Shown here one piece after another: positions 1-48,659 of a DNA stretch of 64,000 bases. Position 1 is the stretch's first letter, and the number at the start of each line of letters is the position of its first letter. Source of the stretch: Harriotta raleighana (taxonomy: Eukaryota); assembly GCA_050575255.1 (NCBI GenBank), contig JBNZDD010013499.1:310001-374000 (forward strand), written 5' to 3'. Under the pieces are notes generated by a model. The model ran no database searches. It was given only the letters and a program-made list of their open reading frames with translations, and was not told where the DNA came from. The translations under genes and the position numbers were made by a program.

Positions 1-134
1 GATGGCGTTACGAAGCTTGGAGTGGTAGAGGACATGGGAAGCATAGTTCTAGATTATCTGCAACTAAGCAATAATATGTGAGATTTATTAGATATTATCA
101 ATCTCATATGAGTGTCTCCTCTTCTGCCATACAG

Positions 135-267
135 GTCCTACTTGCTCTTGGGGATTACATGAACGTACAGTGTCACGCTTGCATTGGAGGAACCAATGTT
201 GGTGAAGACATTAGAAAGTTGGACTATGGGCAACATGTAGTCGCTGGTACTCCAGGACGTGTGTTTG
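135..267 (+). CDS. EIF4A3: eIF4A-III coding exon (equivalent to human exon 5); gene 5' part lies before the window
   Basis: acag|GTC...TTTG|gtaagg; 133 nt; encodes [44 protein letters not shown] (DEAD-box motif Ib TPGR). Confidence 0.97.
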
Positions 268-1035
268 GTAAGGAAACTGTTTCACTATTAGAATTTTTAA
301 TGGTCCTTTTGATGGTTAACTGAATAAAGAAACCTGAATTCAGCCACTCTTTCCTAATGTTTCAATAGATGCCAATTGATCCAATATTTGAGAATTATTG
401 CTTTCTCCTTTAGATTATTTAAAGAAAATAACAAAGTATAATATCCAATATCCAAGGCAATGCCTTTCCCCACCTCCGCAACATTTCCTGACTCTGCCAT
501 TCCCCTTCCCGCCTCCCCCCCTCCGTCCTTAGCTCGGGTGTGAATCAATAACTGTCCAGCGCTTTGGGACGTCCTCCTGACATGAAAGACACTATATAAA
601 TGTAATGTTGTTGTTATGCAAGATTGCATGTGCAATAATCATTCTGGTCCTAAAATCAAAAACAAAAGATATTGCTGAACTAGTGCTGAGAAACTGATGT
701 TCTTTGCAATTTTATGGTAATCTGGCCCCAATCTATTTTAATTTTTCTATTTCAGGATATGCAAGAAAATGCTGATCAATTCAATCCCTTCTCTCTCTCC
801 TTCCTGCCCCACATCCCCCCCTTTCAGTTCATTTGTGTGAGTCAAACCATGCTTGCACAAATAGTAGTTTGTGTACTATTTTTAGTAGATACATAAAGCT
901 TTTACTTTCCACCAAAATATTAAAGAATAATATTTCTATTGAATCTGTTTGAGACAGAAAAAGAAACTGAATGCTGTGAAACTGAAATAAATCTGAACAG
1001 TAAGCCAACGAGTAACTGGTTTCTGTTTTAAACAG

Positions 1036-1116
1036 ATATGATTCGACGCAGAAGCTTGAGGACACGAGCCATCAAAATGTTGGTTCTTGATGAAGCTGAC
1101 GAAATGCTGAATAAAG
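1036..1116 (+). CDS. EIF4A3: eIF4A-III exon 6 (DEAD motif)
   Basis: aacag|AT ATG...AAA G|gtat; 81 nt; [27 protein letters not shown]; not in the ORF track. Confidence 0.97.
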
Positions 1117-1477
1117 GTATAAATTATTTTGCATATATGAAATGCATTTTTCTTTGCCTTAAAAGGGTAGTAATGTTGGATTAAAGTGGCCCAAGGGATA
1201 TATGGATCAATCCTAAACAAGAACCTACAGAATAGTGCCATTTTTTCCCCTCTTACAAATGTTTTTGTTCAGAAATGGTGCTTGTTTAATCTTTCATTAG
1301 AAAAACTCCCATTTGAAACACTGCCCACTGAGACTTGTTGAGAAATGAAACTTATTTCTATTATTTTTTCACATTAAAAAAAGTTTCCATGGGCCAATAA
1401 TTCATGAATTGATTTAATGCCATTAAATTTAATTCCATTACCGATGGTCACTGATACTCTTTGTTTCTCGGCTGCAG

Positions 1478-1619
1478 GTTTTAAGGAACAGATCTATGAT
1501 GTGTACAGGTATCTGCCTCCTGCCACTCAGGTCATTCTGATCAGTGCTACGCTGCCTCATGAGATCTTGGAAATGACCAACAAGTTCATGACTGATCCAA
1601 TCCGAATCTTGGTCAAACG
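1478..1619 (+). CDS. EIF4A3: eIF4A-III exon 7 (SAT motif III)
   Basis: gcag|GT...CG|gtaagc; 142 nt; [48 protein letters not shown]. Confidence 0.97.
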
Positions 1620-2512
1620 GTAAGCATTTCTCTGGGAAACATTGATATCTAGAATTACAGCCAATATTACACAATTGGTGTAGCATGCCATCTCTACAAT
1701 TGTGACTTGATAATCCAGTGGATTTAATATGTTTTTCTCTAGCTGGTGAATAATCTAAATCTGCTTTGAAATTAATTTGTGGATTTGCTTTGTTTTGTGA
1801 TTTTTTATGTTTCCCAGATGATAGTTCCCCTTTGCAATGAAATATGTATTTATTTTTTCTACACTCTTGTAAATGAAGTTTTAGGAAAATTCATTTGTGT
1901 AAATGTTTCCTTATACTTTCTCCTTTTCCTTTATCAGTATAAACCTGTTCACCTTTTCACTACTTCAATGGCTCATTGATTTTTGGTGGGAGATTAATAC
2001 GTTTAGCTGTTTCTATTTTTCTTTCAATTTCCTTCAAATACTGTTTCACCCATTGCACATCTTTCTCAAACATGTAGTTGAAAGTTTTTTTTATACCCTG
2101 TACAACAACTTGCATTTATATAGCACCCTCCACACTGGGTGGCATCTCCGAGCGCTTAACTAACTGCAGTTATGCAGTCTCCATTCTGCAGTCCAGATCC
2201 CAATTTTCAAATGATTAGTTCTGATGTGACTCGCTCAGCACAGACAATGAATTGAAACTGTGTATTTTCCTGTTCTATAGCAAGCTGTTAGAATACTGGC
2301 TGAGTGCAAAAATCACGTCATAGTTTTCTAATCTGGAGGATGAAAACTTACTGTTGCGGGATGAATAGTGTTAGTGGCCACACATTTTATGGCTTGGCAT
2401 TGTTACCAACAGCAGATCTAGAAATCTTCATTACAGTTAAATGTGAATGTTGATGTGTAATATGATTAAAGTAATTTTGTTAATCTTTTGTTTTGTATTC
2501 TTGTATTTTCAG

Positions 2513-2651
2513 TGATGAGTTGACCTTGGAAGGAATCAAACAGTTCTTTGTGGCAGTTGAACGGGAGGAATGGAAGTTTGACACATTGTGTGATCTTTAT
2601 GATACACTGACCATTACTCAAGCTGTCATTTTCTGCAACACAAAGAGGAAG
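2513..2651 (+). CDS. EIF4A3: eIF4A-III exon 8
   Basis: ttttcag|T GAT...AAG|gtatga; 139 nt; [46 protein letters not shown]. Confidence 0.97.
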
Positions 2652-3245
2652 GTATGAAAATATTTCTTCCATTCATTTGTCTAAAATTACTGAAGAATTG
2701 TATTGGATTGTATTGAGATCCTACTGAAAATGAGGTAATTATGTTTTAGAAGGCTAACATTTAACGAGTGTGGACTGGTGGTTAGTTTGACCAATCCAGT
2801 TTGCAGTGCTTGAAAGTTGCAACCAAGAGTCGACCTGAAAATCATAAATGTAACATTTACTTGACACCAAATGGATTTGTCAGCAATTCCTCACACTGCT
2901 TGGTTTCTGATCTCTGAGGGAATTGTTGGCCAGAACACAGAGGTTGCAAGAGAGCAAATCTTTCCTCTCCCCCACACAAGATCAAATAGAGGCTAGCATC
3001 TCTTTGGTGATCTCTTCCCTAATCAGGAACTTGAGGGCAGAGTAATACTGATTCCATATGCTGTTGTCCCATATGTTATGTAAATGACAGAATAGTTCCT
3101 CTTGGTCCAGAAGAATGTTAAGTGTCAACCATAAATCTATTAGTTCATCTAGGATCAGACAGTATTCAGATTTAGTACTAAGATTAGTTTAATTTTATTA
3201 TTTAATTTAAAAAATATTGAATAACTTCTTATGTTTTGTCTTCAG

Positions 3246-3361
3246 GTGGATTGGCTTACAGAAAAAATGCGAGAGGCTAACTTCACAGTGTCCTCTATGC
3301 ATGGTGACATGCCACAAAAGGAAAGAGAATCCATCATGAAGGAATTTCGTTCTGGCGCAAG
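3246..3361 (+). CDS. EIF4A3: eIF4A-III exon 9
   Basis: ttcag|GTG...AG|gtac; 116 nt; [38 protein letters not shown]. Confidence 0.97.
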
Positions 3362-3709
3362 GTACATTTTTGAATGAAAATCAGAATATCTGTGTGTGTG
3401 TATATGAATATGTTTTCATGTCTGCTAAATGACTATTAATGCAAGTCATCAGTGGTAATTGGAGCCAAGCCAAACTAATCCCCTTCATTTCTGATATCAA
3501 TTTATTAATTTTTGACTGTTAATAATGATGTGGGACAGGGATCTGCCTATAGAAGCCAATTGTCTAATGGCTGCCAGAAACAGACCACGGATCAAACCTT
3601 CATTTCTTGTTTCACTGAATGATCCCCGTTACAAAACATGCTTTTTTAAAATACTTGTTACATTGATTTTTCTCATCAAAATATTAAACATATCTTTGTT
3701 TCTTTACAG

Positions 3710-3817
3710 CCGAGTGCTTATTTCTACAGATGTTTGGGCCAGAGGACTGGATGTCCCTCAAGTGTCACTGATCATAAACTATGATTTACCAAACAACAGA
3801 GAATTGTATATCCACAG
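3710..3817 (+). CDS. EIF4A3: eIF4A-III exon 10 (motif V ARGLD)
   Basis: tttacag|C CGA...AG|gtaatt; 108 nt; [37 protein letters not shown]. Confidence 0.97.
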
Positions 3818-4551
3818 GTAATTACTATATATAACATGCTTTCTAAAGGTCAACCACCTTCCGATCCAAACCCCCCCCTCACAAAGAATTTTTGACCATG
3901 ACTGTTTTGGGGACACTTCTGTGGGCAATTGTTTCACCCACAAAATATGTAGTTGATTCACTTTACAGTGTACTCTGTGAAGTGCTTTGAGATGTCTCAA
4001 CAAAGTGATAAAGTGCTATATGAAATACAAGGAATATTATTATTTTTGACTGGCATTTTGACTTTGTGGTAGCAAGATGCACAATGAACATTTCATTCTG
4101 AACTGCACAATTCCCCAAATGTGGACTGAATTTTTATTAGTCTGGTTAGCAACTGGTTCAATTAGTCCTATTTTCAATGTATCATTTGCATTAGGTTATT
4201 GAATCTGTCACAGTGGTGAACAAGCTAGGTTTCACTGATCAAATAAATCTTTAAATTGAAAGATTGGCAAAACATTTTTTTTACTGCTATCCTAACTAAC
4301 TATGTAGGACTATTGATATATACTCTTCCTTTCATCCTCGTACTACACATTTTGTTTTAGAAAATGCAGGACTAAAATCCAATTTTTTTTAAAGAAGCAA
4401 GATCAAACATCAAAATGATTTTGAAAAGTGGCTTCAGATACACAAATTGTAATTCATTATCAGGAAGTTTGGTTGCTGTTTTCACACTTGCTGGCAACGT
4501 TTTGCTGAGTCCTGCTTTCTTGTTGAATATTTACTCTATATTGGTTGGCAG

Positions 4552-4679
4552 GATTGGTCGATCAGGACGTTACGGACGCAAAGGTGTGGCCATCAACTTT
4601 GTTAAGAATGATGACATTCGTATTCTGCGAGACATTGAACAATACTATTCAACACAAATTGATGAAATGCCAATGAATG
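4552..4679 (+). CDS. EIF4A3: eIF4A-III exon 11 (motif VI HRIGRSGR)
   Basis: ggcag|G ATT...AAT G|gtaagt; 128 nt; [42 protein letters not shown]. Confidence 0.97.
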
Positions 4680-5443
4680 GTAAGTTCGAACTATAGCAGA
4701 GCTTTTGATTTGACTGGGTACTTCTCATGAAGGTGCTGAAATGAGTAAATCATTTAGGATATCTTTGCACTTATATGTGCCTGGGTACACACCAACCATC
4801 AATATTACACTCCTGAGATGCTCCAGAAAGATGCATGACTAATGTAGAGCTATTGGAACAGAAGTTAGAGAGTATGGGAAGAACCTCAATGATGTCTCCT
4901 TTCCCTTGACCACGAGATATCTTTCATCACATTTTGATGATCAGGTTCCAACTCTATCCTTGGGATAGTGTGCAGCAGTTCATGCAAATCTGAGATGGTT
5001 ATCGTCAGTTACCCTTTTCCAAGTATTGTTCTTTGTGGTCAGTAATTGGGCTCATCGGTCACCATTGAACATTAGCCTTCCCGTTGGGGACTCCTTCAGA
5101 TCATTCCAGTCGCTTCCTTGCCAAGCCCAGAGTTGCTGTATAGTGTGCATTTCATTCAGATCAGAGGTTTTATTTGGCTCAAATCGACTAATATTACAAT
5201 ATATTGTATCTGTGTAAAGATTTTTTTTTACCAACCTATATCTACGAAAAGCCATTTCATAAATATTCAGCTCCCCAAAAATAATGCATTTTACTTCAAT
5301 TAATATTGAAATTAAATCTCATTCTGGGTGAAGACAAATTGAAAGCGTCTGATGCAGATGGAAGCTGGTTTTCAGATTAGTAGGAAATTTTATAACTTAA
5401 TTTATGCAACTTTGTTGAATGAACATTGTTTTTTTTCTTCCAG

Positions 5444-6770: not shown

Positions 6771-8717
6771 ATTTTCCATTTTTAACCCTCCGGGCCTTTC
6801 AAAGTTCACAGTAATTGTATAGCCACATTTGCAGGTAAATATGAAGCTATTTTGCCTATGAAGGTCCAGTGGTGGCAACCAATTGAGCTCGAAGCGTGTT
6901 ACGAATGCAGTACATCCTTACTATTCTACTGGACAATATAGAATATAATTCTGCTCCAGAGCATCAAAAGAGGAGTTTGAGGAGCTGAGGTAAAAGGATC
7001 AGTGTTTCATCAACCCCGCCATGACATGAAAAGTGAAGTGATGAGTGAATTCAGATTAATTGACAGGAAGCCTGGTATGAAATTTTCACTCACTTAAAAG
7101 GCCTTCAAAAGAATTGTAATTTCACCCAAAAATCTGTAGGGCTATAGTTGAGACACTGCTGTAATTGGGTAAATTAGGACAACAGCAGGTCACATGTCCA
7201 AAGATGAAAAATCACATTACTCGGCCTGAAGGGAGACAAATCCACCAAACAAAAATAATAAAGGAAACATCCCACCCAACTGTTGCACACAGGACATATT
7301 TCAAACCCACCTACTGCATCACTTGTGAGCAGCTCTATTGCATTTTATCCACCAGCAATGAGCATTGCACTGAAGCATGTTTTTCAAACATTTAAATGTA
7401 CATGGAATGATCAGAATGTTACAATCCCACCTTTTCTGTAAAGTGTAGTAACTGCTACCACGTACGGGCTCTAGAATATTGTGCGGTCCATTAAATCATA
7501 CTATTCATGACCACTAGGAGGTAAACTTTGGGCNGTAACTGCTACCACGTACGGGCTCTAGAATATTGTGCGGTCCATTAAATCCTATTCATGACCACTA
7601 GGAGGTAAACTTTGGGCTATCAATATGGCATAAAATCCAAAACTATTACCAGTTTGTACGTGTTCATAATCCCCCTGAGACCAGTGCTAACAATCTGGTT
7701 ATCCACAATTAGCAGAAACCAAGGGGGGAAGCTTGCACTATTCCCACCTAATTTAGATGTATACCAAGCAACCTGTGTAAAGGGTGCTAAATAAATACAA
7801 GTTGTGTGCAGGTGATTTAACATTATCACCATAATCTTTCATTTCAACAGATTCATTATAGATAGCAGAGATTGTCCTGGTCAATATTTCCCCCCACACC
7901 TCCCCCTGGGTTGTTTACTTCAAAGCTGTTTAATGCAAATTAGCCACCTATTTTCACCCACACAAGGTAGTCACTCCACTTGAGAGTAAATTCCCATGAA
8001 GCACTTTTGAGCTATCCTTCTGCTGGGAGAAGCACTACATCAAATGTAAGGATAATCATTATTTCTACAGGAATGCAACATTTTCATATTCAGATATAAT
8101 AGTAATGTGTCTAAAGTGGATGACTAACACTGACTCAAGTAAACCAAGAGTAGGTTTCATTTGTAACTAGGACAACTAGTTGGTGAGATTTCATAACCAG
8201 CCTACATGATTTTACAGATTTTGTTAAAAAAAATCTGAAGCCAAGAATTTCATAGAGTACTTTGATTTAATTATGTATTGAAAAATAAATTACAGGAAAT
8301 AACTTTAAAATGCAACAGAAGACAACTCAATTCCACAACTAACATTCCCATTGCTTTGCCATAAGGGGTGGGATTGCAGTGCTGACGGCAGGTAATATCA
8401 CAAATATATCAAAACTTCAAATTTGATGCATTCTTATGTTTACACCAACCACAAATAACATTCCTTTACAGAAACTGCACGTAGCCTACCACGGTACCAG
8501 ATTTTGCCATTAACTACAAAAAACTTGATACAAAATTTGGTATTTATATATTTATATTTAATATACATGCCCCACCTCATTTAACGATTGATAGAAAATT
8601 AAATAAAAAAGATAAATGCACTGTACAGACAATGCTAACAGGTAGCTGGAGGCAACTTTTGGATGGATNAAATTGACCGCGTACACGTATCTGTGGGCGA
8701 AACGCGGCAGCCGATTT

Positions 8718-9377: not shown

Positions 9378-9497
9378 TCAGTTTATCTTTGATTTGGTTT
9401 GTTGGGAGCCCTGTTCAGTCAGACCTGCTTTGATGGAGTTTGCTACAGTCCGCCTTATGTTGTCCTCCATCAAATTGTCACTCAGTGGCTTCAACAC
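9378..9497 (-). CDS. ATL2: atlastin-2 alternative terminal exon, ATL2-1-type C-terminus
   Basis: ttttgtag|GTG TTG AAG...AAC TGA; [39 protein letters not shown], closely resembling the human ATL2-1 tail [29 protein letters not shown]. Confidence 0.93.
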
Positions 9498-10033
9498 CTA
9501 CAAAATGGAAATGTTAAAAAGGAAAAAAAGGAGACTTAAATGGAGTAAACCAAAAAACATGCTGTTTAAAAATACATGTCCATTAAAATTTCCTCTAATA
9601 GCTGGGGAATAATAGCCATCATATTAGACACAAAGGAATGATCAGATGTGGAATAAAGTAATTTGTGAAACCCTGTGCTTTAAAGGGAAGAACAAATGTT
9701 AACTCAATGATAAAACATGGCAGCTGTGCTATTTGCTTCTACAGAAAAATCAAGATAATATGGAATAGGAGAAGTGAATGTGGCTTAGAAAAGAAATGAA
9801 AAACCTGATTAATGAATGTAATCGAGATGCATCTATCCATAATTCACCTTCAAGTGGGTCTGCTTTGCTCTAACAGTCACTTAAAAGAAATGAGCAGTTC
9901 TGCACCCTACATGTCAGCCGTGTACATTTTACAGACTATTACACAGGGAGACAGACCCTGACAGTTTGTTACTGTGCACATGTAAATGTCCACACTTCCC
10001 CCAAAAAACCAGTAGACGATTGAAGCGCAAAAA

Positions 10034-10135
10034 CTAGTTTTTCTTCTTGTTGTTGTTTGATGAAAGTCTCAGTGATGTTGCAATAGAACGATGTATCACC
10101 CGATTTCGAGCAGAAATGAACAGCTTGGATAATAC
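10034..10135 (-). CDS. ATL2: atlastin-2 alternative terminal exon, ATL2-2-type C-terminus
   Basis: cactaattaac...ttgttttag|GTA TTA TCC...AAC TAG; VLSKLFISARNRVIHRSIATSLRLSSNNNKKKN*, resembling human VFSKLF...RLSSNNNKKKN. Confidence 0.92.
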   Translation of the reverse strand, partial: VLSKLFISARNRVIHRSIATSLRLSSNNNKKKN

Positions 10136-10294
10136 CTAAAACAAGGAGTTGTTAATTAGTGATTTCCAGAACACTGATTAAATCCAGCATGTACTAGAAA
10201 TGAAGGATAACAGTCTCTAAATTAATGCTAAAAAAAAAAATCTGGAATTCTGCGGTAATACAAGCACAAAATAAGGTCTCCTTTTACTCCTCAC

Positions 10295-10309
10295 CTTCTT
10301 TGGACTCCT
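10295..10309 (-). CDS. ATL2: atlastin-2 15-nt microexon (RSPKK)
   Basis: tttttttcctttaatgcaatacag|AGG AGT CCA AAG AAG|gtgagg; frame-preserving; matches the RSPRK insert of human ATL2 isoforms. Confidence 0.85.
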
Positions 10310-12408
10310 CTGTATTGCATTAAAGGAAAAAAAGAAGCAAAGTGGTCAGAGCGATTAATAGAAGGAAAAAGAATATTAAAAAGATTACATACCAAAGCTC
10401 AGTTAAAAAAGGTATAAAATGTAGTTTGTAGGTACCAGTCAAGTAAAGCAGCATTATAACGCTCATCTCCAACAAGAACACCAACATTAACAAAAGGTCA
10501 CTCGTGAGTCAAATTTTGTTGCAGGAAATTGATTTAAGGCCACAAGGCAAGCTGATTCCCCATTTAGGTATCACTCACTGTATAGTTTGTCCGAGCTGTC
10601 CTGATGTTTATAATTTACATTCATATGCCCTTTTTGTACCAGGGTCGCAAAGCAAGGTTAGGAGTCTTGTAAGGAAGAGGAAAAATGCTGCAGAGTTCCA
10701 GATGACCTGCATCTTGTGTAAGGAGAAGTGGGGGAGCCCAGCAAGTAGTGTACTAATAATCAAGCTTGGATACTTGTACAGGGGATGTTTATAAACTCTT
10801 AGCCCGCACTAGAGTATTGTGTCCAGTTTTGGTTATCCCACTTCAGGAAGGATACCAGAGACGAATGAGCAAAGAATGAAGAAAATGGTCCCACATTCAA
10901 CCGAACAGAAGGTCAAGCGGAGAACCAACAGAGGTCTCTCCTCAAAGGGGTAAGAAGGGGGGAGATTGGGTGGATTGATATTGGAGAATATCCGGCAGAA
11001 TTCAAGGTGATTGAGGCAGATTCCACATTAGGGAATTAGAGTAGATAATCTGTAGGGATAAGAGGAAAAGGGACTGAACACATTGCACTTTTGGAGAGCC
11101 AGTCAGACTAGTCCTTAAGAGACTCACTACCTCCCTCAGTAAGTCATTTTTCATGTCCTTGCTGTTCCCTCAACCACTCGGACGTTTATTCATTAGTCAT
11201 TGCCTTTCAAACAAAGTTTGCCAACCCGACAGGTACCCCATTTCAGGCTTCCCTCCGCCCTCAAGGAATACAATTGGAATCTTATTTACCTTGCCTTATT
11301 ATTGCAATTGATCAAAATTCTGAACAAATTAATATAATAGATAACAGTTGAGTCTGGGTGAACTTCCAGAGACAAATGACATTCAACACGTTAGGACCAC
11401 ACAGTCCCCTTCAGTGCATTAACCTAAAAATATTTCAAAAAACTTCCATATACATTTCTGTTTGATTCTGTGGATTTCTCCACTGGGGTAAAAGTGGTTT
11501 GATGAAATGTAAAACTGTACCTTGTGGCTGCGATAAAGCAAAAAGTCAAGAAGCACAAGTGTAAACCACCCAGAAGGAATCTTTGTTGCCTTTCCTCCCC
11601 AAACTATACACCTTCAGTCCAAAAGAGACCTGCTCCTAAATGTCAATCAATGGCATTTTCAAATCAACTGCTAGAAGATAACTCCTTCACTGTGGTGGAA
11701 ATAGCCAACCTCCACTAAGTAGTTGACACTGTAGAACATCCCAGGCGGAGACCTTACCACACTAAGGCATGCATGTTGGAGATGTAACGTAAACTTCACC
11801 CCCATTTTTCTCTTCACACCCCTGGCTTGGCTCCAAAGAGGGAGGAAAAATCTCCATTGTGTTAATTGCGACTTTGAGTTTCCAAATTTCAAAGAAAACG
11901 CTCTGTTTCCCAGATTGTAAAATTCATGCTGACAATTTGGAAAATGCATTCAAGTAATAGAAAATGAAAATCACACTGGTGGATCGAGAATCAGCAACGA
12001 AGGACCAATGAGCAAAATGCTTTTCCGCAGACAGATGTACGTACACCAACAGAATTAGCACCATTTCATGCGCAGAAGAGAAAACTTGTAGAAATTGAAG
12101 CCACCTTCAAATACAGGAGCGGAATGAAGAATTGAATTAAGAACCTGCATCATGCACGGGCAGAGAACACTTTGGAGCACATAACACCAGACAGGAAGAA
12201 ATGCAAACTCCTCAGCCATTGCCAAACGTAGAGCATGAAGTATTCATATACAGTCCTAGAATTCAATAAATGCTTAATATTTACTGCGCATGAACTAACA
12301 TATCAAAACTAGATTCATAACATTAGTTATCTCTCTTAACATTAGTGAAGTTTAGTCTAATTTTAACATTAAGTGTGCAGGCATGTTAATTTTTTAAAAA
12401 GTACTAAC

Positions 12409-12840
12409 CTGTTCCCATATAGTTTCAGCCACATGATCAATGATTGTTCCAAATTCTCTGAATTCACCGGAATATTTAGTGTAAGCCCAGGTGCAGAGGG
12501 ATATTAGAGCTATGCCCATTACGAGGTTGCATAAGAAAGCTATAGTGTCCAAACCAATGAATCCAGTCACTCCTGAGATTATGTACATGGTAAACATCAC
12601 AGCAAAAAGTGTGGCAGGTGTACGTGCAGCATAAAAAATATTTTTGCTGTCATTGTGCTTGATAAAGTTTGCATAGTTCTCTTCTATTTCTCTCTCAAGT
12701 TGTTCCTGGTAGCGTAGGCAGAACTCCTCCCCACCCATTTTCTTCACTGATCGGAACTGTGCCACTGAAGACTGTTTCAGAGTCAGATGTTGTTGCTCCA
12801 GATCAGCTGGTGCTATGTAAGGCTTGTCTCCCCCACAGAA
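12409..12840 (-). CDS. ATL2: atlastin-2 exon 12 (three-helix-bundle end, two TM segments, start of amphipathic tail)
   Basis: tttttacag|TTC TGT GGG...CAG|gttagt; 432 nt; [15 protein letters not shown]...[18 protein letters not shown]...[12 protein letters not shown]. Confidence 0.97.
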
Positions 12841-43959: not shown

Positions 43960-44260
43960 CACATACATACACACACACACACAACACACACCCAGACACA
44001 CACACACACCACACAAACATAGTCAGACATTTTAATGTAAAACAAGAACCAGTTTGTGGTTTTTAAAAAGTGTGAAAGTAAGATAAAACGCAGACAGACA
44101 AGACACACACACATACAGACAGACACACACTGAATAGAGAGAAATGCTATACAGGACATTCTCCACGCACACACTGTATATAATAACGCGTGTGTGTGTG
44201 TGAGAGCAACGCAAATGTATCAACAACGTACACAAACACACACACATACATACACATGAT
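43960..44260. repeat. imperfect (CA)n/(TG)n microsatellite cluster
   Basis: directly visible; other (TA)n/(CA)n tracts at 17184-17216 and 17709-17783. Confidence 0.9.
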
Positions 44261-44549
44261 ATGAACGCCCCTGGAGTGTATGGAAGTGCTTGGTGAGACC
44301 TCACAAGGACGACGTGTTCACGTAGCAACCGCAGAAGGACTATTCTTGTTAATACCGAGTATTAAAAAAAAAATTTTTTTTTTTGGGGGGAATGGGGATG
44401 TAGGTGTTGTTTTTTTTTAAAAAAGAGCGTTTCGAGCTGGTCTGTCACACGCGGCTTTCCGTAGCCGTCACTCCGCCCCGTTACGATTCAAATCCTCGGG
44501 AGTCGTAACGGAAAACTGATACCGGGGGAGAGGGGGGGGGGGGGGCAAN

Positions 44550-44613
<64 letters not shown>

Positions 44614-44949
44614 AGCTCTCTCTCTCTCTCTCTCTCTCCCCCCTCACTCTCTCCCGAATCAGAGCCTGATAACAGGCCGTTTTAGCTCTCTCCCCACCTC
44701 CCCCCCCACCCCCTCCCGCTTCACTCCTTCACTCAGCAGCGCTGTGGTTGTCGACAAGACATGTCGACTGTCAGCCGTTTTTCCTCACATTCAAATACAC
44801 ACCCCCCCCCCCGCTCCCGCCTAAAGCACTCGACAGTTACAGGGTCTCCCAATACCCTCCTCCNTGTAGCCCTAAAGTGTCCATCCATCATAGTTGAGAG
44901 GAGTGTTTAGAACGATCAGAGCTGTCTCCCCCCCCCCCTCCCCTCCCCC

Positions 44950-45470
44950 TCNCACGAACTGCGCGGCGTCATTCAAACCGCTGGCTGCGCAGCCGGAGCC
45001 CGCCCGCCCGCCCGCTCGCCCGCTCGACCGTCCGTCCCCTCACCACCACCAAAAAAAAAAACTTTGTCCAGCCTGCGGGAGACAAGAGGGAGAGAGGAGG
45101 GAGAGAGGAGCCAGCTGGGGGGCCGGGCCTGTGTGCTGTTACCTGAGCTGGGCTGGATACGCCGCCGGGACCGGGGCCGTACCGCTCGCGCCTCACTCTC
45201 GGCCGCCATCTTGCACTGCACATCCATCGGGCGGGGGGAGGGGAGGGGAGGGGAGGGGGGAGGGGGGGGGGGGGTGGACGGGGGCGGGGCGCTCACTGAC
45301 GTCACGGCGTGACGGAGGCGGCCGCGGCTTTCTGGCGGCGTCGCTCCGCCGGGTCCTAGCGCCCGCCATTGTTCCCTCATTTCCCCTCCCCCTCCTGATC
45401 ATGATCAATCTCAGCACACAGCTCCTCTTGCCCCTCCAGCCTCACAGTCGTTCCTGAGCGGCTACGAGTG
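44950..45470 (-). promoter_or_regulatory. ATL2 CpG-island promoter with GC box, CRE and YY1 motif
   Basis: high CpG density; GGGGCGGGGC 45281-45290; palindromic TGACGTCA 45297-45304; CCGCCATCTT (YY1 consensus) overlapping the ATG; no obvious TATA box. Confidence 0.8.
45143..45209 (-). CDS. ATL2: atlastin-2 first coding exon
   Basis: AAGATGGCG strong Kozak context in a CpG island; MAAESEARAVRPRSRRRIQPSS G|gtaaca; phase 1 matches exon 2; RRR motif as in the human ATL2 N-terminus. Confidence 0.88.
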
Positions 45471-45550
45471 TTGAATTGTTCAAAAAAATATATGTATATA
45501 TATTTATATACATATATACAAAATACAGTACTTACAGATGCTGGGAATCT

Positions 45551-45726
45551 TGAGACAAACACAGAAGTGGCTGGGGTGGAACTCAGCAGGTCAGGCAGCA
45601 TCCATGGAGAAAGGAAAGTGGTTCCGACGAAGGGTCGTGGGACCCGAAACCTTGACTCGCCTTCCTTTCTCCATGGATGCTGCCCGACCTGCTGAGTTTG
45701 CCCAGCAACTTCTTGGTGTTTGTCGC
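45551..45726. repeat. long inverted repeat, Penelope-like terminal-repeat relic
   Basis: 37-bp arms 45580-45616 and 45662-45698 with one mismatch, extending imperfectly outward; loop contains CCGACGA-A-GGGTC-gtgg-GACCC-GAAAC. Confidence 0.8.
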
Positions 45727-48659
45727 ATAAAAATAATCCCTGCGTTTGATATAGGGTCCTTGTCGCATTCATCGCCAATTGCACGGAGCATTGTCCCCCC
45801 ACAAACAGCCATGGAGGCATGTGGAGTAAAGAAAACTTTCCCAATGTTTCGCCCTCCTGGGAATCAAACCCTGGTCTCTTCACTTGCGAGGCAAGTGGTC
45901 TAACCACTGAGCTATATGACTCTACAATCGCTGAACTACAGCTACCACTCTGTCCAATATAATACTAATCTTTACATTGATGTAGCACCTGTCACATCAG
46001 GATTTCTGAAAGTACTTCGCAAGATACAGAAAAAGTGTGTTTCAGGATTATTATCATCTCTCACTGAGTGTGCTGCTAGCAATGTACTAATTATCTATTG
46101 TCCCTCAGGTCTGAGCTACGAAATGTATAGGGCTGCCACTTGTGATGGTGTCGATTTCTGCAGTTTGGAATATTTTGCGTGCGAAGTTTGAGTAAAGGGA
46201 CTGAAGGGTGAGTGGGAGAAAGAGGGAGAGGCAGCGCAAAGTGAAGATTTTCCTCGTGGCCTTAGGCACTAAACTAAATTGTAACTAAATTAAACAAGTA
46301 AATTGAATATTTCATGTATCGAAATTCATCCCACACAAAAAAAACAGAACCAGGGTGAGAGGGGAGAACACATTAGGACCACTGTTTAATAGGAGTAAGA
46401 AAGAAGCACAGTTCTGTACACATTTAATCAAACTTTCATATAGTTATGTTCCACATACGAATGCTACATCCTCCAGCCCTCTTGGATGTTGATAATGCCT
46501 CAGTTTACGTTTCCACAGCAATGAGAAGCAAGAACAGTGAGCACAGCCAGAAAATGGACTGAAGGGGATAATACGATTTGTAAAATCTTCTGATAAAACA
46601 AATTCATTTTAGAGTTGTTAAAAATTCCAATTAATTACTTAACGGTTGCGAAAGGAATGCAGTGATTTATGAACTGTTCACTAATTATGTCGATTTCTCA
46701 ATTTACCCACCAATTTATCTTATTAAATAGCTGTAAATGTCTAGGGGACAATTACTCCATAGTTACAAAAATGTGTGTATCGCTTTCCAAGCTGTGTACT
46801 GTACAGAATATCTCAAATATGATCGCATAGTAATAGCATTGGATCGTCATCTTGGCCATTTTGTGGAGAAAACTGAAACACTTGCAAAATCAATGTTGAA
46901 GGTTTTTTTTTAAAATAACAGAACAGTCATGTTATTCATCTTGCTACTTTTCTGTTGCAATGGACATTTCTGGAACAAGAGATCCATTCAAGTTGCTCAT
47001 CCTCAATGCTCTTTATCTGAGAAAAAGTAGAGCGCGAAGGAAAGAGGAATTAGTGAGCTTTAGTCTTCGGCTGCTCTTGTATATTCTGTATTTGGAATCA
47101 TTTGGCTGAGGGCACCAGTCAAAGTTTGCAATGCTGATCACAATCCAATGACCCTTGCGTCACTAGTTTGTATATTGTGACAGTATTTGAGGTCCAGGAC
47201 GTCATTATTACTCCCCCCCTTAGAAACGTTTTGTCTCTGTGCTGTTTTGATTTGTTTGATCCTTATTTAATTTCCTGAGGCCCGCAAAGAGTCTACGTTA
47301 CAACAATACAAATGTGACGCCCTTAGAGAATAGGGCAACGTCCTATTCGAATTGGCAGAGCTCCCCACCGCCTTACTTTGCAATATGGAGCAGTCAATAG
47401 TCCTCCGTTTGCATGTGGCGAACAGGCTTTCCAAATAGAAACATTTCAATTCCGTCGAGGCAACAATTCTATGATTTCCTTTATCATTTCCTGAAGGAGA
47501 AGAAGTAAGTTTTGCTGATCCGATTTCTTACTGAGGTAACAAGATATTGGGAGATTGGAGTGAAATGTGGCTCCGTTTTCCACCAATTCAGGACTTATTC
47601 AACAATCAATCAACTATTCAGAACCCTCTTTGAAAAAGGTTACACAAGTTTCTCCATGTGTTGTAACCAACAGTCCTCTGGATTAGTTCAGTGGGATTAT
47701 TATTAGATCATTATTTCTTCCTATTTATCAGGGTATCATTGGGCACAAATCGCCCCTGTCCTCTCCCACACCGGGCTCCTCTCTGGCTCCACGGGCTCCC
47801 CATCCCTCAGAGGATCGAATTCAACTTTCAAGGCCACCCACGGCCTTGCCCCCTCCTACCTCTCTGACCTGTTGACCCCCTATCAAACTGTCCCCTCCCT
47901 CCAATATTCAGCAGGCTCCAGCCTGCTCCATGTCTCCGGTCTGACCCGCCCTATCATCAACGGCCGGGCTTTCAACATCTCTGCCCCAACACTTTGGAAC
48001 TCCATCCCACAATCGCTTTTCTTTGCTTCCTCCCTTGCCTCCTTCAATACCAGTCTCAATTCCCTCCTCTTCGACCATGCCTTCAGTCGCCATCCTTTCT
48101 CTCTGTCTTCATTCATCCCAACCTCTGCCCCCTACCCCCCCACCCCCACTGACTGTTCAACGCCTTGGGCTGTCTTCCCGATGTGAAAGACACCCTACAA
48201 ATATAATTTTATTGTTGTTGTTGTTGCCATGTTTCACCCACAAAATACACACAGTCACACCGCTTTACGGCGTATTCTGTGAAGCACTTTGAGTCGCCTT
48301 CTAGACGCCTCAAAGCACTTCACAGAATATATTGTGAAGTGAATTGACTGTATATATGTGGGTGAAATGCAGCAGCCAATTGTGCAAAGCAATTATGACA
48401 GGTTAAGTTAAGACGGGTTTTGGTGTTGGGGAGCGAGGGCCAAGGCAGAGAGACTCCAGGATCGAGTTCCAGAAAAATGGCTGGATGTATGCCCACTGAT
48501 GGTTGGAAGGCTCTGGCAGAGACCTGTTGCTTAGCGGTTAGAGCACTTGCCTCACAAATGAGAAGACCTGGGTTTGATTCCCAGGCAGTGTGGAACTTTA
48601 GTCAAGTTTTCTTACTCCATACAAGTGGGAAACCAGTTGTTAGGAGTAATTAATCCCCT

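Follow-up and report, generated by a model that had tools for sequence, protein, structure and literature searches.

The described system closest to this locus is the alternatively spliced 3′ end of vertebrate ATL2. Bryce et al. 2023 (PMC10140384) describe an exon 2A that encodes RSPRK in human isoform ATL2-3, and their Table S3 records a 5-aa exon 2A in 15 of 18 vertebrates, including Callorhinchus milii and Amblyraja radiata. The exon precedes either of two last exons: the tail encoded by exon 2C is strongly autoinhibitory, and the tail encoded by exon 2B is weakly so and is found in brain but not in liver (PMC8624677). In the lipid-mixing assays of Bryce et al., exon 2A further weakens autoinhibition, with ATL2-3 less autoinhibited than ATL2-2; a review (PMC12312388) terms this effect modest, and it and PMC8624677 ascribe the larger effect on fusion to the swap from 2C to 2B.

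A 15-nt ATL2 exon is also listed in the supplements of splicing studies. The human event HsaEX0006689 has a PSI of 0.25 with GFP and of 94.1 with SRRM4, and of 1.06 with an inactive SRRM4 mutant and 68.3 with the wild type in MCF7; it reaches 70.9 in neurons and 16.4 in progenitors, with a mean of 0.24 over nine non-neural tissues (PMC7935315; we took file 7 of these supplements to be S4 Data by its column heads). A 111-nt human ATL2 exon located 95 nt downstream of this event, which fits exon 2B, rises from 1.9 to 84.1 with SRRM4 in the same supplements. In the portion of the supplements of PMC9303857 used here, the zebrafish event DreEX0000709 (ATL2, 15 nt) falls from 65.4 in wild-type eyes to 16.4 in those of srrm3 mutants at 5 days, and the chicken event GgaEX0012443 (ATL2, 15 nt) has values of 71 for retina, 6.4 for the remaining neural samples, and 0.5 for non-neural samples. 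A search of all but one supplementary file each of PMC4387716 and PMC12626420 gave no Atl2 row. Literature searches for ATL2 or atlastin together with microexon gave no main-text match, and ATL2 together with SRRM4 gave only papers unrelated by title; the link between SRRM proteins and ATL2 stands in supplementary tables only, and we found no paper that joins the splicing tables with the fusion biochemistry.

The ATL2 gene of Harriotta raleighana and its microexon

Positions given below without a contig name refer to the window, the whole 64,000-nucleotide stretch of H. raleighana DNA that was analyzed. A tblastn model places an atlastin gene on the minus strand, extending between about 33.7 and 9.4 kb. 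Its transmembrane (TM) exon is 96% identical to that of C. milii atlastin-2 and 88–90% identical to those of sharks and rays; we therefore assign the host gene to ATL2 and regard the animal as chimaera-like. This upstream constitutive exon (12409..12840, minus strand), placed by the tblastn model and by joints in eight runs, encodes the end of the three-helix bundle, TM1, TM2, and an amphipathic helix that ends in WEQ. The coding part of exon 2B (10034..10135, minus strand) encodes a basic tail of 33 aa that, by homology to human ATL2-2 and ATL2-3, is predicted to be of the weakly autoinhibitory type. The coding part of exon 2C (9378..9497, minus strand) encodes a tail of 39 aa with the MEDN and LTEQ motifs that PMC10140384 names for the autoinhibitory ATL2-1 type.

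The microexon is positioned after the W(E/D)(Q/N) codons of the TM exon and before both last exons of this ATL2 gene (10295..10309, minus strand), 2099 nt from the TM exon and 159 nt from exon 2B; the call rests on the sequence, the junctions in run X8, and the C. milii RefSeq peptide. The introns on either side are phase 0, so the 15 nt are read in frame as WEQ-RSPKK-VL, and with this length and phase 0/0 the exon belongs to the frame-preserving class of 3–27 nt that is given for neural microexons in PMC7935315. The 15-nt exon occurs once in the minus strand of the window, and a 161-nt stretch around it has a single match in the genome. In C. milii, RefSeq contains all four combinations of microexon and last exon, with RSPKK in isoforms X1, X3, and X5; as in Harriotta, the five residues of isoform X3 (XP_007892554.1), like those of ATL2-3 (PMC10140384), directly follow WEQ and precede two last exons. 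The peptide is identical in C. milii, two rays, and one sawshark, differs by one change from human RSPRK, and follows the pattern R-S/T-P-R/K-K; RSPKK, RSPRK, or RTPRK inserts are present in 21 of the 120 homologues listed, from chimaera to mammals. The Harriotta microexon is the orthologue of exon 2A, and it adds one species to an exon that was already annotated, catalogued, and biochemically tested. A preliminary description of this DNA had considered the exon easily missed by annotation; the RefSeq entries for C. milii (isoforms X1, X3, and X5), the rays, and the sawshark contradict that expectation. The main text of PMC10140384, in the parts considered here, uses neither "SRRM4" nor "microexon" and tests 2A only in combination with 2B. 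Annotated proteins of C. milii (isoforms X1 and X5), goat, horses, pig, and bonytongue (P0122, P0123, and eight other records) combine the microexon with the autoinhibitory exon 2C; this combination constitutes a fourth isoform, outside the three described as tested in PMC10140384.

Transcript evidence comes from contigs of eight (X1 to X8) of one organism's nine listed runs, which lack tissue labels and whose RNA nature is a guess backed by GT–AG joints. In exons, the contigs diverge by a few percent from the window (14 of 437 letters in the TM exon), so the runs come from a close relative of H. raleighana. In run X8, loose ends at 10137 and 12409 spell TM exon, microexon, and exon 2B with the same 15 letters; no skipping joint is among those listed for this run, and its TM-exon contig ends at 12409. 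Among the joints listed for the other seven runs there is only skipping, with the TM exon connected by GT–AG joints to 2C in six of the eight runs (X1, X3, X4, X5, X6, and X7) and to 2B in three (X2, X5, and X7). With inclusion in one run and skipping joints in seven, the microexon does enter transcripts, to an extent that differs between samples; it is a real, alternatively spliced ATL2 exon. The seven runs without inclusion are not evidence of absence, since contigs lose rare variants and the listings of loose ends were truncated (by 9 and 16 entries). A contig break at 10137 in X2 was considered as a hidden inclusion and rejected, the TM-exon contig of that run ending at 12407 and not at 12409.

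Several other features of the window were recorded. In the region 9494–9999 (minus strand), contigs of the relative either splice the 3′ untranslated part of 2B onto the 2C acceptor or read through; the splices originate at 9845 (X8, GT–AG) and at about 9999 (X2 and X7, with ends that are non-canonical in the letters of the window), so exon 2C can act as the 3′ UTR of 2B transcripts. Exons of a DEAD-box helicase, which we take to be eIF4A3, lie at 75–4693 on the plus strand, tail to tail with ATL2. At about 7445–7620, two head-to-tail copies of a stretch of ~85 bases flank a single N, which is likely an assembly join. The region 44001–46000, upstream of the ATL2 exons found, has a GC content of 0.55 compared with about 0.38 around it and possibly contains the ATL2 promoter and first exon.

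Splice signals and predicted regulation of the microexon

The extended 3′ splice site of the microexon (10310..10349, minus strand) was delimited by its sequence, its composition, and a chance control. It begins with a branch-like CTGAC (10349–10345; positions −40 to −36), whose A at −37 is the putative branch point, and continues with a pyrimidine tract (about 10344–10322), a TGC (UGC in RNA; 10319–10317) at −10, and the acceptor CAG, the AG of which (10311–10310) directly precedes the exon. The 5′ splice site, AAG/GTGAGG (10289..10294 for the intronic part, minus strand), opens the 159-nt intron to exon 2B and is near-consensus as judged by eye against the donor consensus; the junction with 2B is present in run X8. 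All minus-strand letters quoted in the preliminary description are found at 10349–10289. For SRRM3/4 targets, 10.1101/2024.09.17.613571 and PMC12871342, in the parts considered here, describe a layout in which the tract lies at some distance from the AG, and the first of these reports that UGC aids the SRRM4 response but is not strictly needed. The microexon acceptor has this layout, with a set-back tract, a branch-like signal, and a UGC before the AG; its pyrimidine share is 0.91 at −35 to −13 and 0.33 at −12 to −4, the reverse of most other ATL2 acceptors.

The UGC alone is weak evidence, since 772 of the 3743 YAG sites in the window (21%) carry a TGC at −20 to −6; among the 13 other ATL2 acceptors examined, one has a TGC (at −11). 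We defined a rule for the full architecture: a YAG, a TGC at −20 to −6, at least 15 pyrimidines in the 18 nt upstream, an exon of 3–27 nt with a length divisible by three, and a GTRAG donor. The microexon site is the sole match on both strands of the window; however, because the rule was designed around the microexon, this match is by construction and only the shuffle rate, a mean of 0.02 matches in 100 local shuffles, is informative.

We infer that the human, chicken, and zebrafish 15-nt events are orthologous to the Harriotta microexon on the basis of gene and length and, for the human event (95 nt before a 2B-like exon), of position, a comparison that does not extend to their letters. SRRM dependence is shown for the human and zebrafish events; for Harriotta, whose genome contains two SRRM_C loci above the cut-off, it is predicted by analogy. 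The proposal that this is an ATL2 microexon of the SRRM3/4 type is supported by a human counterpart that responds to SRRM4 and a zebrafish counterpart that depends on srrm3. The stricter wording "neuron-specific" is not, since the chicken event, unlike a generally neural one, is retina-enriched.

Position of the insert and accounts of its role

The insert had been described as entering the amphipathic helix. It follows W(E/D)(Q/N), where the helix ends according to Bryce et al. (PMC10140384), and is better placed at the C-terminal boundary of the helix; Crosby et al. (PMC8624677) predict one kinked, continuous helix that runs into the tail across the insertion point. The insert brings a proline and three positive charges to this joint of helix and tail, raising the net charge after WEQ from +8 to +11 with the 2B tail and from +2 to +5 with the 2C tail. 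Because autoinhibition by the human 2C tail is relieved when acidic residues in it are changed to basic ones (PMC8624677), we suggest that the added charge and a break in the helix are the likeliest causes of the effect measured in vitro. Folds predicted for C. milii with and without the insert were too poor for a test of mechanism (mean pLDDT of 41 for both, 44–57 in the tail); the tail helix predicted at 550–589 without the insert is broken at 566–568 with it, as the proline suggests, at a confidence too low to count. A helical wheel was uninformative: the insert rotates the next 11 residues by 140 degrees, but even without it their hydrophobic face is ~100 degrees off that of the amphipathic helix.

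We hold with high confidence, short of certainty, that SRRM3/SRRM4 are the likely activators of this orthologue of exon 2A in neurons and photoreceptors, and that the exon likely contributes to converting an ER fusogen autoinhibited by its tail into a fast one. The proposed mechanism starts from the exon, its frame, its splice signals, and its inclusion in one of the eight runs of the relative. As in other species, SRRM3/4 would act through the extended, UGC-bearing acceptor, for which the two SRRM_C loci offer candidate genes. Inclusion would then accompany the choice of 2B over the autoinhibitory 2C; the two exons are induced together in human cells, which suggests that they are coupled. Against this coupling, X2, X5, and X7 have direct joints between the TM exon and 2B, so 2B can be used without the microexon. 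The five residues would further weaken the remaining autoinhibition, as they do in vitro for the human protein, probably by way of the proline and the positive charges at the joint of amphipathic helix and tail. Finally, the Ser-Pro may be phosphorylated.

We consider it a real possibility, though a somewhat doubtful one, that the exon serves mainly in splicing, its recognition drawing the nearby 2B acceptor into use, and that the peptide is secondary. The 2B acceptor has no UGC at −25 to −5, yet inclusion of the corresponding human exon (111 nt) increases under SRRM4 together with that of the microexon in all rows examined; the intron between the two exons is short (159 nt in Harriotta, 95 nt in human); and the swap from 2C to 2B has the larger effect on fusion (PMC8624677, PMC12312388). 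X8, the sole run with inclusion, covers 2B deeply, although contig depth is a poor measure. However, 2B is used without the microexon in three of the eight runs, isoforms that combine the microexon with 2C are annotated in C. milii and mammals, and conservation of the peptide, which has a measured effect of its own (PMC10140384), extends from chimaera to mammals. A role in 2B recruitment overlaps with the reading that we prefer, a neurally regulated exon 2A that eases autoinhibition, and does not exclude it.

The preliminary description had added that the exon would supply a phosphorylation site that tunes neuronal fusion. The sequence S/T-P-x-K/R is a CDK consensus. SPKK fits it, and we judge it unlikely that a CDK5-type proline-directed site is the main job of the exon. 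Among 231 proteins we found 34 five-residue ATL2-type inserts (RSPRK in 15, RTPRK in 10, RSPKK in 6, RTSRK in 2, and RAPRK in 1), which comprise isoforms and relatives and so are not independent records; the remaining proteins have no insert, an ATL1 insert, no usable TM exon (27 proteins), or odd ends. S/T-P-x-K is kept in 31 of the 34, and teleosts exchange Ser for Thr (RTPRK, 10 records) with the proline kept, as a selected phosphosite would show; the site is also cytosolic and adjoins a helix that is required for fusion (PMC8624677). Against this, the motif is lost in three records (RTSRK in two, RAPRK in one) and three basic residues are kept in all 34; the first Arg and the last Lys may be partly fixed by splice signals. 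The literature listed for atlastin, ATL2, and CDK5 consists, by title, almost entirely of autophagy reviews, with the site absent from titles and abstract openings, and the parts of PMC10140384 considered here do not tie the in vitro effect of the insert to phosphorylation.

Inclusion in chimaeras might instead occur in non-neural tissue or under another regulator, with the UGC incidental. The frequency of UGC by chance, the missing tissue label of X8, and the expression of ATL2-2 in breast tissue as well (PMC10454310) are consistent with this reading, which we regard as very improbable given the dependence on SRRM3/4 in human cells and zebrafish, the near-zero non-neural inclusion in human and chicken, and the retention of the full acceptor architecture in a genome with two SRRM_C loci. 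That the 15 nt are a chance intronic look-alike that is never spliced has only the shortness of the exon in its favor and can be dismissed for practical purposes, being refuted for the relative by the spliced junctions in X8 and opposed by the identical peptide in annotated chondrichthyan isoforms.

Atlastin paralogs and proposed neural control of ER fusion

The Harriotta ATL1 gene contains a 15-nt microexon encoding GSTNE (G000:C13549:959016-959002, locus L004, minus strand), with a set-back tract and a TGC at −13. Like the ATL2 exon, this ATL1 exon 1A is phase 0, follows W(E/D)Q, has a UGC-type acceptor, and is SRRM4-responsive in human, where the event HsaEX0006681 rises from 18 to 99.75 with SRRM4 (PMC7935315). 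Unlike exon 2A, it encodes a net acidic peptide and strengthens autoinhibition (PMC10140384). The two Harriotta microexons match at 9 of 15 bases (shuffle p 0.02), or at 7 of 13 without the final AG (p 0.06), and have an AGT serine codon in common at position 2, a resemblance that hints at a shared origin. A search within ~15 kb downstream of the last exon of Harriotta ATL1 detected no relic of exon 2C (best E 0.55).

A third atlastin was observed in the genome (G000:C13400:324863-336760; loci L008, L007, and L005), with ten exon blocks at the same intron positions in low-complexity DNA. In a tree of 28 rows that includes no bony-vertebrate ATL3, it falls in a group with three proteins of rays that bear the names atlastin-3-like or atlastin-2-like (98/92, on a long branch), outside the ATL1 and ATL2 groups. 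In PDB, human ATL3 is the best match for two of the three exons tested. The Narcine protein has scores of 654 with ATL3 and 609 with ATL1, compared with 698 and 722, respectively, for C. milii ATL2; the TM exon of the third atlastin as a query gave no match at E 1e-15. ATL3 is stated to have been lost in cartilaginous fish (PMC10140384), and we found no other paper on this point by title. To judge from its sequence, the third, ATL3-like gene looks like a counter-example to that loss. Within it, at G000:C13400:326086-331381 (L007), three exons are present in two copies with identical flanks, at a distance of 3804 bases; the second copy begins beside N letters, and the doubling is probably an assembly duplication.

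A more far-reaching scenario would combine these observations in a two-step, SRRM3/4-driven switch of neural ER fusion that predates the split of chimaeras from bony vertebrates. Under it, the microexon would commit ATL2 to the disinhibited 2B and install a CDK5-type Ser-Pro site at the helix joint, through which a kinase could restrain the otherwise unchecked fusogen in neurons and photoreceptors, and the ATL1 and ATL2 microexons would share one ancestor and now be opposed in action; we think it quite unlikely that this scenario is correct as a whole. Taken together, the SRRM3/4 target tables and the atlastin fusion assays suggest that the rate of ER fusion is set by neural splicing factors, acting through ATL1 as well as ATL2, with relevance to the shaping of the ER in neurons. 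If phosphorylation of the Ser-Pro does alter fusion, it would represent a new layer of control.
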